Assembly (NCBI GenBank): GCA_000146465.1
Contig: CP001945.1
Strand: one strand, 5' to 3'
DNA length: 64,000 nt
Shown here: positions 3,128 to 24,956 of the stretch, in pieces
Position numbering within the stretch: position 1 is the stretch's first letter
Layout of the letters: every line of letters begins with the position of its first letter
Translations under genes and position numbers: made by a program
The notes under the pieces: model-generated
Database searches by the model: none
Told to the model about the DNA's origin: nothing
What the model saw: the letters and a program-made list of their open reading frames with translations, nothing else

Positions 3128-4309
3128 TTAAAAACCATTCTTTATATCAAACAGGTCTAGAATAACACATATAGTTATAAGGAATCCCGTAGAAAGAAGA
3201 TCAGAAATCGATGAAATAAGTGGAAGTGCCAAGACTCCTGTGTCTTCTTCTTTCTTATCTAAATACTCAACAAGGAGGGAAATCCCACTCAGCAAAATTG
3301 TAACCTGGAAAACAAAAGATATTATAAACAATACACAGAACTCACGTGAGTATAGAATCCCCATTAGTGCTGCCATTCCAAGATAGCATAGAGACATGAG
3401 TATGGAAGCTAATACCAATGTTATATATGACTTTCTACTGTTATGAATTGTCCGATTATTGATCGATGTAAATATCCTGTGAAGATAAATGAATGCTATT
3501 GATACAGACATTCCACCAAACACAGGAAACGACGGCGCAAGAACTGGGAATCTAGTGGAAAATGTCTCAAGTACGTATCCACTAGCAGTACTAATTCCAT
3601 ATGTTGCAAGAAGAACCTCCACCGGCTGAAGAGGAATTCTCTTTTTACTGACTAGTACAAAGCAGAGACACAAAGGCATCAAGGAGATTGAGAGGAAAAT
3701 GTATGAAAGACAGGATGACGGGGAGGAGTCCCTAAACCATTTGGTAAAGTATACCAAAGACCTTACATTCGTGTAATCTCCAAAAGATGATATGGTAGGG
3801 AGAATGATATTGTCTGGATTGATGTCCATAAATTTTGACAGCTCTATAGATATTACAAGCAGTATAATGAACAAGATCGAAGTCAATATGCACGATACAA
3901 GTGCACCTGCAAGTATGGAAAGTCCTAGTCCTTCGCTCAATCCTCCTGATAAAATGCCTCCTGCCATCCCTATTAGTCCTATTACAAGTCCTATTGCTAC
4001 AGACTGTGCCAAAACCATGCTAGAGTTGTCAAAGACATATCTGAAGTACCTCCTATATATGAACAAAGGAGATTGACTCATCGACGAAAGATACATCGCA
4101 AATGTTAGTTCTATGTTGCCCTTGAATGCCAAAATGCAGTTTGCTTCGAGAATCACAGGGACGCCTGCTAAGCGGGGATCATCGGTGGCATCTATCAGTA
4201 CGGATCCCATGAGGATCAAGCCACTCAGCGATATAAGTAATCCTGGAATTGATTGTATTAGCAGGGAGGAATCATACAGTGACATATTGAACAAGTCCCC
4301 AAACATCAA
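3128..4309 (-). CDS. Polytopic membrane protein with about 10 transmembrane segments. It is possibly an MgtE/SLC41-like divalent cation transporter.
   Basis: Repeated hydrophobic helices throughout. Two internally repeated segments, DPRLAGVPVILEANCILAFKGNIELTFAMYLSS and LAPSFPVFGGMSVSIAFIYLHR, loosely resemble the duplicated MgtE-domain motif P..(G)GNL..(A)SR(I)ST.LH. The family assignment is weak. Confidence 0.4.
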   Translation of the reverse strand: MMFGDLFNMSLYDSSLLIQSIPGLLISLSGLILMGSVLIDATDDPRLAGVPVILEANCILAFKGNIELTFAMYLSSMSQSPLFIYRRYFRYVFDNSSMVLAQSVAIGLVIGLIGMAGGILSGGLSEGLGLSILAGALVSCILTSILFIILLVISIELSKFMDINPDNIILPTISSFGDYTNVRSLVYFTKWFRDSSPSSCLSYIFLSISLMPLCLCFVLVSKKRIPLQPVEVLLATYGISTASGYVLETFSTRFPVLAPSFPVFGGMSVSIAFIYLHRIFTSINNRTIHNSRKSYITLVLASILMSLCYLGMAALMGILYSREFCVLFIISFVFQVTILLSGISLLVEYLDKKEEDTGVLALPLISSISDLLSTGFLITICVILDLFDIKNGF

Positions 4310-4595
4310 TTCGGGCCTCTGAGTTTGTTAAGAAGAAAAAGTTTCGCAAGCACCAATAATGCTTTATGGAAGGGTCCAACGCTCCATTCCATGGGGTTTC
4401 AAATGCTTTGAAATCATTGATGGACGTGATGAAAGAAAGTAGGAGAATCCTATGAAGAGTGGAGAGGAAACCCTTGTTTCATTTTCAAACATAAGGAGGC
4501 CTTGTGTTCGTAGGACCTGGAATTTCAACAGGCTTGTGGAATTTCTTTTAGGTTGAAACCTTTTGAAAACAACACCCATATAATCAATCCAGAGC

Positions 4596-5330
4596 ATGGA
4601 AAAATCAAATGCGAGCTTTAATTTCGACAAAATACCGAAGTTCATAATGAAGCTCTATAAGGCCACCAATAACGAGAAGTACAAAGGAATCTCCTGGACA
4701 CCCGATGGGCTTAAGATTCACATATATGACCGAGACGTGTTTGTTAAGGAGACACTTCCCCTCATATCGAAGACAAGGGAGTTTGGAACGTTTGTCCGGA
4801 TGTTGAACAGTTACGGGTTTGTTAAGTCCAAGGACATTGAAGAGGAGGACATATATTACAATAAGAACTTCAGAAAGGGAAGAGAGGACCTGCTGGGGTT
4901 TGATGATACACTCCGAATGATTAAAAGGAAGAAGTCCAATGATATTCGAATGAGAATTGGAGATGGATCTTTGAAGGACGTAGTGGAGTATTTATACGTA
5001 CAAAACCAGGAGTTATATACAGAATTGTCTGCTTGCAAGGAGCGCATAGAGAGGCAGGAGAGAGCCCTCAATGGTCTTATAGAAATTCTTTCAAGGGTCT
5101 TTAGAACAAATTCCCAGGACTTCGGGGCTCGGATTAAACCCAATGCTCATAATCTCCACGACGAAATGGACCTTTTTCTTGGAGAGCTTTCAGGGCCTCT
5201 CAAAGAAGGGTATGAGCCGCCTTCTCCTGATGTGCAAGGGAAAGGCATCCCTGAACTGTCCTTTAAGCCAGGAGAAAATTTTCAAGTAGATTCCGACTCT
5301 AAGAACGACAGGTATGATGCTTTCTTCTAG
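4596..5330 (+). CDS. Heat-shock-factor-type DNA-binding-domain transcription factor.
   Basis: The N-terminus FIMKLYKATNNEKYKGISWTPDGLKIHIYDRDVFVKETLPLISKTREFGTFVRMLNSYGFVKS...IYYNKNFRKGREDLL matches the HSF winged-helix consensus (FL.KL...W...G.sF.v.d...F...vLP.yFKh.nfsSFVRQLN.YGF.KV....F.hp.F.RGq..LL). A coiled-coil region follows. Confidence 0.8.
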   Translation: MEKSNASFNFDKIPKFIMKLYKATNNEKYKGISWTPDGLKIHIYDRDVFVKETLPLISKTREFGTFVRMLNSYGFVKSKDIEEEDIYYNKNFRKGREDLLGFDDTLRMIKRKKSNDIRMRIGDGSLKDVVEYLYVQNQELYTELSACKERIERQERALNGLIEILSRVFRTNSQDFGARIKPNAHNLHDEMDLFLGELSGPLKEGYEPPSPDVQGKGIPELSFKPGENFQVDSDSKNDRYDAFF

Positions 5331-20129: not shown

Positions 20130-20990
20130 TCACTCGTCTGGGGGAACATACTTCTCCACATCCCTTTTTTTCTTTTCCTCTCTTTTTTTCTTTCTTTCTC
20201 TGCTGCTTTCTCTTTCTTCAAAATCAAAGTCTCCATCAACAAAGTATTCCCCAGTCTCCATCTCAATGTCCTCTTTTCTCTTGGGAACATCCAGGGGCAT
20301 ATTTCCACTGGGTCTTCCAACAACTTTCTTCTTTGACTTCTTGTTGCTCTTCTTGATCTTTGGAAGAAAACGGCTCCAATCCTCTCCTTCTTTGCTTTTG
20401 TCTTCTTCCAGCTTTCTTTTTTCAATAAGACTCCTAATCTGATACATCGGATGAATGTTGTTCATACAATCAACAACAATCTTCTTCACCTCTTCAATTC
20501 CCTTGAAACTACCTATAATGCTTACTGTCTTTCCATGAACAAGAACATGGCATTTTGTTAGTATCTGGATAGCTTTCAAAGTCATTTCTTTTGGCCCTAT
20601 CAGCCTATCCCTCCGCTTTTCAAATACCTTTTCTGAGCTTGCCATCTTCTTAATGTCAACCACCTCGCAGAAGTACTCGTCTTCCAACACCTTCATTGCT
20701 TCCTCAATTCCAACTCCCCGGCTCACAAGCTTAACAAAGTTAACCGCCTTAACAAATATAAACGGGTCTCTTGTACTTCTGTTTGTCATTACGTCGATCG
20801 TTCTTTCTCCCATGTCGATCTTACAAGATATCTTCTTCGCCTCTAATGCCTTTTCTATGTATTTCTGTGTCTGTTCAATGTATTTTTCCCTGTACTTCGG
20901 AAACATCACGGTTTCTGAACTCATCTCGGCAAACTCATGCTTGAAGTCGTCCTCACAAAACTTGACTCCATCCTCCATCCAGGGCCCCAA
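20130..20990 (-). CDS. KRR1: KRR1 small-subunit processome component (KH domain).
   Basis: The sequence FPKYREKYIEQ...RDPFIFVKAVNFVKLVSRGVGIEEAMKVLED...KRRDRLIGPKEMTLKAIQILTKCHVLVHGKTVSIIGSFKGIEEVKKIVVDCMNNIHPMYQIRSLIEKR matches KRR1 (FPKYREQYLRE...[59 protein letters not shown]). A K/E-rich tail follows. Confidence 0.85.
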   Translation of the reverse strand: MGPWMEDGVKFCEDDFKHEFAEMSSETVMFPKYREKYIEQTQKYIEKALEAKKISCKIDMGERTIDVMTNRSTRDPFIFVKAVNFVKLVSRGVGIEEAMKVLEDEYFCEVVDIKKMASSEKVFEKRRDRLIGPKEMTLKAIQILTKCHVLVHGKTVSIIGSFKGIEEVKKIVVDCMNNIHPMYQIRSLIEKRKLEEDKSKEGEDWSRFLPKIKKSNKKSKKKVVGRPSGNMPLDVPKRKEDIEMETGEYFVDGDFDFEERESSRERKKKREEKKKRDVEKYVPPDE

Positions 20991-21005
20991 TTCTTAGCTT
21001 TTCAC

Positions 21006-21740
21006 CTATACAAATTTCTGTATCCTCTCCCTCTTCTTTCTTCCAACCACCTCGACAAAGCTATCTTCTACTGTCTTTTCTCCTTGTGACGCCTCCACAC
21101 CCTTCCAAACTCTTCTGGGCCCCCGAACAATACACCTTCTGGGCTCTGGGAGTATCCTAGTCCTCTCAATTCCCACCCTCACCAGCTTTGCAATTTCTTC
21201 CCATAATTTTTTAATGATTTCGCTCTGGAGGTTTAACATCTCATCGATAGATTCGTAGACATTGCACATGTGTTTGTACCACTTTTGAACATCTATATCC
21301 CCCCTTTCCCATGCATCAGGACATAAAAAACCTCCCGTGTATTCATATCCAAAAATATATGAGAAATACATCTTATCTTCGTCGAAATCTTCTCCCTTCC
21401 GGAAGTATCTATGGAAGTAGATGTGTGAGTTCACGTACTCTCTTTTCTGGAATCCAAAAGTAAATAAAATATCTTCGAGATCTCTTCTTTTCATCTTCAC
21501 CATCTTAGAACCGTCCAAGGCATCTGGAACTCCTACTTTTCCGCACACTTCAAATGCTCGTCCATCTTCAACCCATTTCAGCACCTTGTTCCTGTCGTTC
21601 TCGAGTTTCCCATGGATAAATCTTACTACAGATAGATAATAGATGTACTTTTCTCTCCTCCCATCAATATCCTTCCTCATCCAAAAATCCTCAGAAGGGA
21701 TATCAATGTCTATCTTTTCTCCTGAAAACAGAAAATCCAT
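21006..21740 (-). CDS. Divergent HSF-type DNA-binding-domain protein.
   Basis: The segments KVLKWVEDGRAFEVCGK...RRDLEDILFTFGFQKRE...IYFHRYFRKGEDF fit the HSF pattern (W...G..F.v......F....Fvrq.N.yGFrK.....F.hp.F.RG.e) with weaker conservation than the other copies. Confidence 0.5.
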   Translation of the reverse strand: MDFLFSGEKIDIDIPSEDFWMRKDIDGRREKYIYYLSVVRFIHGKLENDRNKVLKWVEDGRAFEVCGKVGVPDALDGSKMVKMKRRDLEDILFTFGFQKREYVNSHIYFHRYFRKGEDFDEDKMYFSYIFGYEYTGGFLCPDAWERGDIDVQKWYKHMCNVYESIDEMLNLQSEIIKKLWEEIAKLVRVGIERTRILPEPRRCIVRGPRRVWKGVEASQGEKTVEDSFVEVVGRKKRERIQKFV

Positions 21741-21755
21741 GTAGCATTTGTAGAT

Positions 21756-22505
21756 TTATTGAAAGTCTTGGACAATATCATTGAACTTATGCCTTTTCAC
21801 CTTCAGGTTCACAGTTATTCCCGAAGTCTTCTTGACTTTCTCCTTCTCCTTTTTCTTCGGAGGGGACTTTTGGGGAACCTTGGGAACCTCCAAATCTCCA
21901 ACCTCATCGAGGAATCCAAACGAGCAGTTTGCATTGTCTTGGAAATATCTCTTTGCCCATTCTAACATCGATTCCTCAAACTCAATCTTGTTACTTGGAT
22001 CGTAATTTATGCTTTTAAATTCATGATACGGCTTCAATGTCTTCATGTGCGAGCACAAAGAAAACAGAGAATCCCGAAGTTTTGAAATCTTTTTCTCGTT
22101 TTCTCTAAGTCTTCCAATCATTTGAGGAACCTCGCTCATCATGATGCGGATGTTCTCATTCATCGAATCGATCTCTTCCTTAGGTATCTCCCTGTCGCTT
22201 TTATGGTTCACCTTGTATATCATACCAAGGAAATTCTTCTTCTGCCTTTGGAAAAATTTGTTATAATACTTCAGTCCAGATCTTCCAATCTTCTTGAATC
22301 CATAGCTCTCCAGAAGCCTTTTAAATTCTTCTATTCCAGTACAAAATCCAAAAAACGGCCCGGTAATAAATCTAAACATCCCGGGGTTCCTTATAACAAT
22401 GCATCGTCCGCTTTTACTCCATTCAATTGCTGTGAAACGAGTACTGTCCACCATCTCATATAGTATCTCTATTTCCTTTTCTACGGACTTTGATTTCCCA
22501 ACCAT
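21756..22505 (-). CDS. HSF-type DNA-binding-domain protein.
   Basis: The sequence AIEWSKSGRCIVIRNPGMFRFITGPFFGFCTGIEEFKRLLESYGFKKI...KYYNKFFQRQKKNFLGMI corresponds to the HSF motifs (WS..G.sF.V.d...F...vLp..F....f.SFvRQLN.YGF.KV ... F.hp.F.rGq..LL.nI). Confidence 0.65.
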   Translation of the reverse strand: MVGKSKSVEKEIEILYEMVDSTRFTAIEWSKSGRCIVIRNPGMFRFITGPFFGFCTGIEEFKRLLESYGFKKIGRSGLKYYNKFFQRQKKNFLGMIYKVNHKSDREIPKEEIDSMNENIRIMMSEVPQMIGRLRENEKKISKLRDSLFSLCSHMKTLKPYHEFKSINYDPSNKIEFEESMLEWAKRYFQDNANCSFGFLDEVGDLEVPKVPQKSPPKKKEKEKVKKTSGITVNLKVKRHKFNDIVQDFQ

Positions 22506-22525
22506 TCTTTCAAGGACTTTTCAGA

Positions 22526-23575
22526 CTAAACATTTTTGGCTTTCCTGGACTTTGAATCTACATACTTCACTCCATCCTTAAAAAGGCGGAAAAGCATCTT
22601 ATACACACTGTTCTGAGACAGCCCACACAGCTCAATTTCAAAACTGCTCGAGATGGTAATCTGGGCTCTCTTCCTGGCCGTCCCATCTCTGGAATCTAGC
22701 CGTCTCGACATCTTCCTTATAAACACTTCAAAGATTATTTTGTATTCCTTGCTTATCTCCAGACTGCAAAGCCTCTCCAGCACTCTAATCGACTTGTCAA
22801 ATCTCCCGTGCTTCATCCATGCCAAGCACACAAGAAACTCATCCCACATGGTCTCTCTCCTTTCTTCAACTCCTAGGATCTTTCCAAGGCGATGCAGAAC
22901 ACCTTGGGAATACCGGTCTCTCTTTTCTAATTCTTCTCCAAGAAACTTCCTTGTAAACTTGAAGTATCGTACAAGACAAGGATACATGGAGGATAGTTCC
23001 ACAAGCTTGGGCAACGCCAGTCTCCCAAAATACTCTTCTGGTGCATTCCTTCGCACATTTTCAAATAGATCCAGATCCCCAACCCCGAAATCCTTTTCAT
23101 AGGCCCTGTACCTTGGAGATTGTAAGATAAGCGCTTGTAGGGCATCCCTGCGATATTTACTCTTTGTCCTGTATACGTGGTAAAATACAATATCGTTGTT
23201 CTTAAAGAATCTCGAAAACACACACACATATCTTACTGCAAGATCACTGATTCTTGGGTCTGTAGAGTAGAACATATGGAGGATGTTTGTGTCCACCTCC
23301 TCCACATGCTTACTAACCTTCTCGAGATACTTCAGTGCTAGGGATTTGGCAATCCGATTCTTTGCATGGAATAACTGCCCCATCTTCCTGATTCCACCCC
23401 TTATGACCTCTTTTTGCGAGGTGGACTTTATGATCCTCTTCAAATTCGACAGACCTACCTCGATATCAGAATAAGAGGAATCTGGAGAAATATCTATCTT
23501 TAGGAGCTTCTTCAAATGTGTGTTCGGCTTCATGAAATGGGTTTTAGAAGAAGGGATTAAATAAGACATTAACAA
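22526..23575 (-). CDS. Hypothetical 349-aa helical protein.
   Basis: Intact ORF lying between the two pairs of HSF-type genes. No recognised motif. Confidence 0.45.
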   Translation of the reverse strand: MLMSYLIPSSKTHFMKPNTHLKKLLKIDISPDSSYSDIEVGLSNLKRIIKSTSQKEVIRGGIRKMGQLFHAKNRIAKSLALKYLEKVSKHVEEVDTNILHMFYSTDPRISDLAVRYVCVFSRFFKNNDIVFYHVYRTKSKYRRDALQALILQSPRYRAYEKDFGVGDLDLFENVRRNAPEEYFGRLALPKLVELSSMYPCLVRYFKFTRKFLGEELEKRDRYSQGVLHRLGKILGVEERRETMWDEFLVCLAWMKHGRFDKSIRVLERLCSLEISKEYKIIFEVFIRKMSRRLDSRDGTARKRAQITISSSFEIELCGLSQNSVYKMLFRLFKDGVKYVDSKSRKAKNV

Positions 23576-23758
23576 ATCGATGCTTTCAGAGTAACTATGA
23601 CAACTGGCATTACAAAATGCTGGTTAGTGCCTCATCATTAAGCATTGTCAGAAGATTCCTCCGCCAAGCTCCCGAGGAAACTGGTACTCGGAGGATATCC
23701 TCTGCTAGGGGCTATGGAAAGACCTATTTAATAAAAGTAATTTTCTCTTGGCAAGCCC

Positions 23759-24247
23759 ATGTCCATAGAGAACAAGCCATTCAGTTTTACATATATTATC
23801 CGTAACTTTCATAGAATAATTTCCAAGGGAAAGGATGGAGCAGCATGGAGTCCTTGCGGGAGAGAAGTTATAATTACAGACTCTGCCAAGTTCCAACGGT
23901 TCCTCGAGAAATTGTCAAGAAAAAAAAAAGGCTCGAAGCTAGACTACCTGAAAAGAAATGGCTTTATTCGGGGAAAGACAATGAACCAGAAATCGGTTTT
24001 CTCCCATCCATGGTTTGTAAGAGGGCAGAAAGATCTCCTGAAGAACTTCACGCTCAAAAACTCCTTCTGTTGGTCACAGGGGATACAGATGGGAAGCCAT
24101 GGAGAACCTGATGACCCACTGGACTCATTGAAGCTAGGGTTGTTTGATTTGGGAAGAACATTGTTCAATCTCCGGAACAGTTGTTTAGATTTGAATTCGC
24201 ATATTCAGCTTCTTTTTAATATGGCTAAGTCTAAATCATGTGAGTAA
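23759..24247 (+). CDS. HSF-type DNA-binding-domain protein, short form of 162 aa.
   Basis: The sequence AAWSPCGREVIITDSAKFQRFLEKL...LDYLKRNGFIRGK...VFSHPWFVRGQKDLLKNFTLKN matches HSF ([25 protein letters not shown]...FVRQLNMYGFRKV...EFQHPCFLRGQEQLLENIKRK). Confidence 0.65.
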   Translation: MSIENKPFSFTYIIRNFHRIISKGKDGAAWSPCGREVIITDSAKFQRFLEKLSRKKKGSKLDYLKRNGFIRGKTMNQKSVFSHPWFVRGQKDLLKNFTLKNSFCWSQGIQMGSHGEPDDPLDSLKLGLFDLGRTLFNLRNSCLDLNSHIQLLFNMAKSKSCE

Positions 24248-24290
24248 CTGGAACAGTGAGTTTTGACGATGGTGGGGGATTTAACCCTTT

Positions 24291-24956
24291 GTGAAGAGTG
24301 AAGGGATGAAAAGCAGAGAGAGGGTTTTGGAGGACATAAGAAACAGATTGAGGACACTGCTGTCGAGCAGGAAGTGCATAGGCATGGAAAGCATAAGAGA
24401 TGACTTTTTTTTTATGATAACAAATCCTAAAATCTTCGACGAGCTAGTGATGGAACCGGTCTTTTCTTGCAATAAATATTGGGAGTTTAAGAGACTAATG
24501 TATCTTTGTGGATATTCGCATATCAATAGATGTATGTTCATGAAGGGAGGAGAAAAGGAAGGCCGAGCCCCTAGTATACTTCTTAAGAGGCCTGAAGAAA
24601 AGGATCTTTTGCGTTTTGAAGAAGCCTTGGAAGATCTGCGGAAAAAGTATTTAGATCTTGAAGAGATTCTGGACGATGTATGGGACAGACTGGATAATAT
24701 AGATGGTGCTCTTGAAAGATCCATGGGAGCAATACGGGATGTATTTAACAAAGGAGCAGAAGTCTCAGGAGTTGATCTCCAAGAAATAAATGGACTTGTT
24801 GATTCACTAATGAAATATGATGAGTCGGAGTCCATGGATACATTCAGCGAGGGAGCAACTCCGGAAGAATCCGATATAGAAGCATTTTCGTCCTCCTCAG
24901 AGGAGGGCCACACAAAGGTGTTGGAAAATAAAGAAAAGAAGATCAGTTTCTTTTAG
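24291..24956 (+). CDS. Hypothetical protein with a possible degenerate HSF-type domain followed by a coiled coil.
   Basis: The segments KYWEFKRLMYLCGYSHI..CMFMKGGEKE weakly resemble the HSF helix-3 and wing region. A heptad-repeat segment (LRFEEALEDLRKKYLDLEEILDDVWDRLDNIDGALE) is followed by an acidic, serine-rich tail. Confidence 0.4.
   Translation: MKSEGMKSRERVLEDIRNRLRTLLSSRKCIGMESIRDDFFFMITNPKIFDELVMEPVFSCNKYWEFKRLMYLCGYSHINRCMFMKGGEKEGRAPSILLKRPEEKDLLRFEEALEDLRKKYLDLEEILDDVWDRLDNIDGALERSMGAIRDVFNKGAEVSGVDLQEINGLVDSLMKYDESESMDTFSEGATPEESDIEAFSSSSEEGHTKVLENKEKKISFF

Follow-up and report, generated by a model that had tools for sequence, protein, structure and literature searches.

A cluster of four small genes, B, C, D and E, lies at positions 21006 to 24956 of a 64,000-nt stretch of the genome of Encephalitozoon intestinalis ATCC 50506 (contig CP001945.1, assembly GCA_000146465.1). 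We call the whole stretch the window. Its open reading frames (ORFs) of interest were named A, B, C, O, D and E; B–E are the cluster, O is an embedded gene that is not of the heat shock factor (HSF) type, and A is an HSF gene elsewhere in the window. Comparisons at the sequence level confirmed that B–E are real, old and fast-diverging HSF-type paralogues. We lean towards the reading that these four old, fast-evolving paralogues would be small, oligomerising transcription regulators that depend on each other, with A as the conserved local representative of the family. All five HSF-type ORFs were present at exactly the coordinates given in a preliminary description of this DNA, with lengths of 162–249 amino acids (Table 1), and no sixth HSF-type copy was found in the 64-kb window beyond A–E. 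That description had also rightly taken the organism for a microsporidian. In the cluster, B closely follows C and E closely follows D, each head to tail, and the two pairs are transcribed divergently around O and a candidate small nucleolar RNA (snoRNA).

The Pfam model HSF_DNA-bind (PF00447, gathering cut-off 22 bits) gave 65.7 bits for A, 37.7 bits for C and 26.0 bits for D, all above the cut-off. B and E had no match to this model even at E ≤ 10. The preliminary description had assigned all four cluster members to the HSF type, and had held that failure to score above threshold in a hidden Markov model (HMM) search would show its motif matches to be spurious. C and D passed this check and B and E failed it; read literally, the result spoke against the assignment for two of the four cluster genes. 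Structures in the Protein Data Bank (PDB) gave further matches for the genes that passed. A matched the DNA-binding domains of human HSF1 and yeast HSF at E about 1e-10, C matched HSF sequences at E 5e-4, and D matched HSF2 at E 1.5e-6.

Word-indexed searches for homologues of B and E recovered nothing beyond the queries. Orthologues were reached through synteny with the neighboring gene KRR1, in loci that we fetched and numbered with L (L003 is from E. cuniculi; L008 and L012 are two contigs of one sample). This gave 4–5 orthologues per family, 31–53% identical to the window proteins. Family-against-family hhalign comparisons of the full-length proteins, B or E with C or D, reached only 9–28%. 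A sensitive comparison needed trimming to the domain and a canonical reference profile, which comprised segments of E. intestinalis A, its L009 orthologue, human HSF1, human HSF2 and Kluyveromyces lactis HSF. In the domain-only comparison with this profile, the positive controls C and D reached 98.1% and 96.6%, B reached 93.4% and E reached 41.6%. As judged from these alignments, C is the cluster member nearest to canonical HSF.

B very probably has a divergent HSF-type domain, as indicated by its profile comparisons. The alignment of its domain with the canonical profile had an E-value of 2.4e-7 and a z of 14.6, and none of 100 column shuffles reached the observed score. Among the PDB sequences, HSF2 and Drosophila HSF ranked at the top for the B family profile. 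With a profile of the domain only, HSF domains were the sole PDB sequences below E = 1 (best E 0.013). Among the six-frame ORFs of the fetched loci, the HMM of the B family also matched canonical HSFs, at E 3.5e-6 (the L009 HSF) and 2.5e-4, and the HMM of C matched B orthologues at E 9.5e-6.

E is likely to be of the HSF type as well, to go by its alignments and a predicted structure. Its domain aligned with that of C at 83.5% (E 8.3e-6). The shuffle z was 7.2 against the canonical profile and 8.3 against C, and again none of 100 column shuffles reached the observed score. The E profile searched against PDB sequences gave coiled-coil noise only and no HSF. An exhaustive HMMER scan of 1.84 billion representatives revealed only four members of the E family. 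These four sequences, with no recognised HSF among them, made up the multiple sequence alignment (MSA) that was used for AlphaFold2 (AF2) modeling of E. The single-sequence AF2 prediction was uninformative, with a predicted local distance difference test (pLDDT) value below 50 over residues 22–101. The best AF2 model had pLDDT values of 81–89 over residues 11–80 (means of 10-residue blocks). It comprised helix 3–26, strands 32–36 and 40–43, helices 46–58 and 63–72, strands 75–79 and 82–85 and then a helix at 103–154, with the winged-helix order α1-β1-β2-α2-α3-β3-β4. In a Foldseek search with this model, the top matches were nearly all HSF domains, with target-normalised TM scores of 0.55–0.63 and weak E-values. 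Two structure-search methods both put HSF domains first for E. The third helix of the model (residues 63–72, YWEFKRLMYL) is the segment that had been aligned independently to SFVRQLNMYGF.

In the L007 orthologue of E (L007:6108–6623, minus strand), the whole N-terminal HSF-like domain is gone, with profile positions 47–104 missing; what is left is the coiled coil and the acidic, FF-terminated tail. As the domain was deleted while the coiled coil and the tail were kept, this suggests that the HSF-like domain is dispensable for the function of E.

In HSF–DNA structures, the recognition helix (SFVRQLN) reaches the G of nGAAn through its Arg. The domain of A is canonical and has kept this Arg. Across orthologues, the position is occupied by R/K/N/R in C and by R/K/K/R in E. 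It has been replaced in B (D/K/D/T/G) and in D (D/G/N/D), and the window copies of both have Asp. The Trp and Gly of the β1-β2 hairpin (W..G..F.V) are kept in all orthologues of A, B, C and D; E has Ser or Pro for the Trp and mostly Asp or Glu for the Gly. The wing motif F.(K/R)G is retained in D and B. The three motifs that had been listed for the five ORFs are complete only in A; E is without W..G, and B and D are without the recognition-helix Arg. A Pfam scan of the A–E proteins found no domain besides HSF_DNA-bind. Behind the domain, a crude heptad score was strong for E at residues 104–138, marginal for B and D, and negative (below the null) for A and C.

We also observed that, at the C-terminus of four of the five proteins, an acidic or polar residue precedes an aromatic one, and that this is kept across orthologues. 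The ends are ...DAFF in A (5300–5330), ...(S/H/D)(F/L)F in E (24930–24956), ...(E/K)F(V/I) in B (21006–21030) and ...(D/N/E)(F/L)Q in C (21756–21780). Judged by sequence, this common ending may be a shared short linear motif.

In E. cuniculi (L003), the block has the order UAA transporter, E and D, O, C and B, KRR1. The same five-gene block between UAA and KRR1 was found in three deeply diverged microsporidia from public read sets (L006, L007 and L008+L012). The cluster is therefore old, as had been supposed, and on the evidence of this shared gene order the arrangement had become fixed before Encephalitozoon and Ordospora radiated. In E. hellem, E. romaleae, the romaleae-like isolate L005, Ordospora colligata and O. 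pajunii, O is the sole gene between UAA and KRR1. Family HMMs detected no relics of B–E in these cluster-less syntenic sites, where the remaining spacers are 91–397 bp. Among ten taxa, five have all four genes and five have none; no taxon has only some of them at the syntenic site. The preliminary description had set the cluster apart from a genome that otherwise sheds its genes. It is not exempt from this shedding, as all four genes are absent at the syntenic site in the E. hellem/E. romaleae clade and in Ordospora.

A neighbor-joining (NJ) tree was made from 999 columns of KRR1 and the HECT protein. It placed the hellem/romaleae clade (bootstrap 94) next to E. intestinalis (81), within a grouping with E. 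cuniculi. Ordospora formed a separate clade (100), and L006 and L007 were outside (94). Because the tree separates the hellem/romaleae clade from Ordospora, at least two independent complete losses are implied. Every loss needs two deletions, one on each side of the retained O.

The nonsynonymous divergence (dN) of B–E is 0.35–0.66, compared with 0.12–0.25 for KRR1 and UAA, that is, 2–4 times higher. Orthologues share an identity of only 40–52%. The rapid diversification noted earlier is borne out by these values. Synonymous divergence (dS) is saturated everywhere, and dN stays far lower than dS in all comparisons for which dS could be calculated; the omega values of 0.08–0.36 are rough, because with saturated dS the ratio is only roughly usable. 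The ORFs of B–E are intact in five lineages, and each family has 26–51 invariant columns. By these measures of substitution, B–E are fast-evolving yet constrained genes.

Within the cluster, C and D were the best hhalign pair (95.7%), E was nearest to C, and B and E reached only 0.3%. An inverted segmental duplication of one pair predicts similarity of C to D and of B to E. We rejected this model, since B and E show no similarity. Of the old local duplication in the preliminary description, the age and the paralogy held.

Another arrangement was observed in a distant metagenomic microsporidian (L009:1273–6042), which we compared with 3128–5330 and 20130–23575 of the window. This locus has MgtE (minus strand), an A-type HSF (plus strand), the snoRNA, O (plus strand) and KRR1 (plus strand). 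The A orthologue adjoins O, at the place that D and E take in cluster-bearing taxa. The divergent pair of MgtE and A is also conserved in the window. The gene order of this one taxon fits an ancestral adjacency of A and O, followed by local duplication and a later inversion that would have shifted A by about 15 kb.

We searched for heat shock elements (HSEs) as well. The window has 4 HSEs of three units where about 2 were expected, which is no enrichment, and the cluster itself has none. A two-unit HSE-like site, GAAGATTC, is located at 23651–23658 in the spacer between O and D. It is absent from the orthologous spacers of four other taxa. Because it is not conserved, and such sites occur about 1.25 times per kb in the window, the site is probably due to chance. 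On both counts, the missing enrichment and the lack of conservation of this one dimeric site, we rejected autoregulation through HSEs.

We propose that, in each protein, a helical region would follow an N-terminal winged-helix domain of the HSF type, and that B–E might be small, oligomerising transcription regulators functioning as an interdependent set; DNA binding, oligomerisation and interdependence are all inferred. C would be the likeliest conventional DNA binder, with its Trp, Gly and recognition-helix Arg retained. B and D, in which the base-contacting Arg has been replaced, might read other DNA or serve as partners or modulators. For E, the strong coiled coil and the acidic tail that ends in Phe might do most of the work. 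The set is probably not a general heat-shock regulator, because several relatives, including E. hellem, do without it, and because HSE-like sites are neither enriched nor conserved at the locus.

A stricter version of this proposal, which we regard as doubtful, is that the four proteins form an obligate hetero-oligomeric regulator. C, perhaps with E, would contact DNA; B and D would contribute pseudo-DNA-binding domains that tune specificity or activity; and E would supply the coiled coil and an effector tail. An obligate hetero-oligomer would explain why lineages keep or lose all four genes. If true, E. cuniculi and E. intestinalis, which infect mammals, would have a lineage-specific transcription switch that E. 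hellem, E. romaleae and Ordospora do without. E. hellem infects birds and humans.

It is also possible, though we think it the less probable case, that the HSF-type paralogues act as independent transcription factors, each with its own DNA specificity and targets. On this view, regional deletion or relaxed selection would have removed them together by coincidence. Residues of the recognition helix vary from family to family and are fairly stable within each, as would be expected of diverged specificities, and only two loss events are known. Yeast also has several independent factors of this type, Hsf1, Skn7, Hms2, Mga1 and Sfl1 (see also PMC6531884). However, each loss took two separate deletions flanking the retained O and snoRNA, and no partial gene set was observed among the ten taxa. 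Independent DNA binding also does not fit well with the replacement of the base-contacting Arg by acidic or small residues in B and D, or with the dispensable domain of E in L007.

Two further alternatives concern the nature of the genes themselves. B and/or E might be unrelated lineage-specific proteins that happen to lie beside C and D, with chance matches to the HSF motifs. They have no Pfam match, and even their best orthologues reached E-values of only 0.011 (B) and 0.12 (E) against PF00447. The E profile found no HSF among PDB sequences and reached only 41.6% against the canonical profile; single-sequence AF2 of E failed and one of five MSA models was confident. Against this stand the 93.4% and z of 14.6 of B, for which HSF domains were the sole PDB matches below E = 1, and the 83.5% and z of 8.3 of E against C. 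HSF domains also came first for E in two structure searches, and the predicted helices and strands of E coincide with the positions given by the sequence alignment. We thus consider a chance resemblance improbable. Even less credible is that the cluster genes are functionless duplicates in slow decay, with their divergence a result of neutral drift. A dN 2–4 times that of the neighbors, degenerate DNA-contact residues, absence from two lineages and the truncated E of L007 speak for decay. Against it, the four ORFs are intact in five lineages with saturated synonymous sites and rough omega values of 0.08–0.36, dozens of columns are invariant in each family, and neither the order nor the orientation of the genes varies. 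Neutral sequence in so compact a genome would not remain open over such a distance.

Several observations weigh against our own reading of B–E as an interdependent set of HSF-type regulators. For B, the evidence of membership is all of one kind, namely sequence comparison. For E, confidence was high in only one AF2 model of five, the MSA comprised just four sequences, and the Foldseek E-values were weak (0.045 and above). Homology can be demonstrated for the DNA-binding domain only, because the C-terminal halves of the families show no significant similarity, and the crude heptad score clearly supports a coiled coil for E alone. HSE-like sites are not enriched in the window and the one in the central spacer is not conserved. 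In the E. hellem, E. romaleae and Ordospora genomes, the absence of B–E was established for the syntenic site only, the deep nodes of the NJ tree are weakly supported, and the co-loss argument is based on just two loss events.

The gene enclosed by the cluster, O, had been called an orphan. Each of the eleven other taxa that we examined, as distant as Vairimorpha ceranae, has an orthologue of it (L001–L007 and L009–L012), and 14 columns are invariant. O was retained in every taxon examined, including those without B–E. A profile of 11 O sequences had no match to Pfam or to PDB sequences. Going by its orthologues, O is a conserved microsporidian protein of unknown function.

Nor is the divergent spacer between O and D (23534–23758) a plain spacer, as a candidate snoRNA, itself conserved, lies within it. 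In a block of about 65 nt, hardly any position varies across five taxa. Read on the minus strand, this block contains a terminal stem together with the two boxes of a C/D-box snoRNA, C (AUGAUGA) and D (CUGA). Rfam gave five matches, every one to a C/D-box family; the strongest, SNORD64 (27.1 bits, E 0.003), was below the gathering threshold. The invariant 19-mer of the block is present in 8 loci, and is also found upstream of O in L001, L002, L005 and the distant L009, all of which are without the HSF cluster. The 12-nt segment preceding the D box (GUCAUAGUUACU) would be complementary to AGUAACUAUGAC, which we take to be a conserved segment of the large subunit (LSU) rRNA. The candidate snoRNA belongs to the locus but not to the HSF family.

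The spacing of the genes depends partly on the gene models. The gap between B and C is 15 bp (21741–21755), that between D and E is 43 bp, and the ends of the O and D ORFs are 183 bp apart, all as reported before. The 183- and 43-bp figures hinge on mechanical TTG/GTG starts from bacterial-style ORF calling, and such starts are not expected in a eukaryote. In an alignment of orthologues, O begins at the ATG at 23533, which gives 335 amino acids and a divergent spacer of 225 bp. E is annotated from the ATG at 24306, with 216 amino acids and a D/E spacer of 58 bp, and this is probably its real start. The annotated start of B is the ATG at 21680 (224 amino acids); a Logan gene call and the alignment with E. 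cuniculi permit 21740.

Table 1. Genes, domains and other features of the HSF-type locus in the E. intestinalis window.
Feature	Position	Strand	Annotation or evidence
Gene A	4596–5330	+	ADM11324.1, annotated "heat shock transcription factor"
DNA-binding domain of A	about aa 16–100 (nt 4641–4895)	+	Pfam PF00447
Gene B	21006–21740	-	Eint_040460, "uncharacterized"
Divergent HSF-type domain of B (very probable)	about aa 47–122 (nt 21375–21602)	-	hhalign, alignment
Gene C	21756–22505	-	ADM11337.1, "HSF-like protein"; E. cuniculi orthologue ECU04_0530, "HSF1 domain"
HSF-type domain of C	about aa 7–94 (nt 22224–22487)	-	Pfam, hhalign, PDB matches
Gene D	23759–24247	+	Eint_040490; E. cuniculi orthologue ECU04_0550; HSF-type domain flagged by UniProt
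HSF-type domain of D	about aa 1–95 (nt 23759–24043), then short helical region	+	Pfam, hhalign
Gene E	24291–24956	+	Eint_040500, "uncharacterized"
Highly degenerate HSF-type domain of E (likely)	ORF aa 6–85 (nt 24306–24545)	+	Alignment, model
Predicted long heptad helix of E	aa 103–154 (nt 24597–24752)	+	AF2 model; acidic tail ending FF after it
Gene O	22526–23533 (335 aa from ATG); listed ORF reaches TTG at 23575	-	Orthologues
Candidate C/D-box snoRNA	23581–23644	-	Near-invariant block, Rfam; inside O/D spacer
KRR1, conserved neighbor	20130–20990		

Microsporidia have very few recognisable transcription factors. The canonical HSF has been lost from them (McNamara-Bordewick et al. 2019, PMC6531884). 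For each of its species, among them E. intestinalis, E. cuniculi, E. hellem, E. romaleae and O. colligata, the same study lists a single Skn7-like and a single Hms2-like protein, and it reports that microsporidia with only these two proteins still mount a heat-shock response. Gene A is probably the published Hms2-like entry, because the spacing of the accessions fits. That paper makes no mention of the four cluster genes, and our literature search for the B–E locus tags and for microsporidian HSF-type expansions found nothing. The locus adds four HSF-type genes to the published two in E. intestinalis and E. cuniculi (PMC6531884). Two of them, B and E, are newly recognised members of a known domain family. 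As both are invisible to Pfam and annotated as "uncharacterized", it seems that standard domain thresholds under-count regulators in fast-evolving genomes. The cluster is one of the few differences in regulator gene content among very similar Encephalitozoon species, and its all-or-none retention offers a testable hypothesis of functional interdependence. The general heat-shock regulation of microsporidia stays unsolved by the cluster, because many microsporidia are without it.

Among known winged-helix families, ETS domains form a metazoan family. The ETS winged helix ranked under all HSF matches, and sequence profiles tie B–E to HSF. Skn7-type factors have a DNA-binding domain of the same family, and Chaetomium Skn7 (5d5w/5d5x) was among the PDB matches of A, C, D and the E model. 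However, A–E are without the receiver domain of Skn7, since Pfam found HSF_DNA-bind only. Canonical HSF1 and HSF2 (PDB 5d5u, 7dci, 3hts) differ in their long regulatory and activation regions and their HR-C, which are absent from A–E (162–249 amino acids). Unlike these factors, B and D have no recognition-helix Arg and E has no Trp or Gly at the hairpin positions. Close relatives also lack the B–E genes, which other microsporidia do not need in order to respond to heat. Similar to A–E in layout are the yeast factors of the Hms2/Mga1/Sfl1 type and the microsporidian Hms2-like NCER_100004, in which an N-terminal HSF-type winged helix is followed by a helical or coiled-coil segment. Like Hms2-type factors, A–E are short and have neither HSF1-type activation domains nor HR-C (PMC6531884). 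In contrast to the Hms2-like proteins, B–E are extra to the listed Hms2-like and Skn7-like pair and far more divergent, with two of them below the Pfam threshold. They are confined to part of an Encephalitozoon/Ordospora-level clade, physically clustered, and partly without the canonical DNA-contact or core residues.

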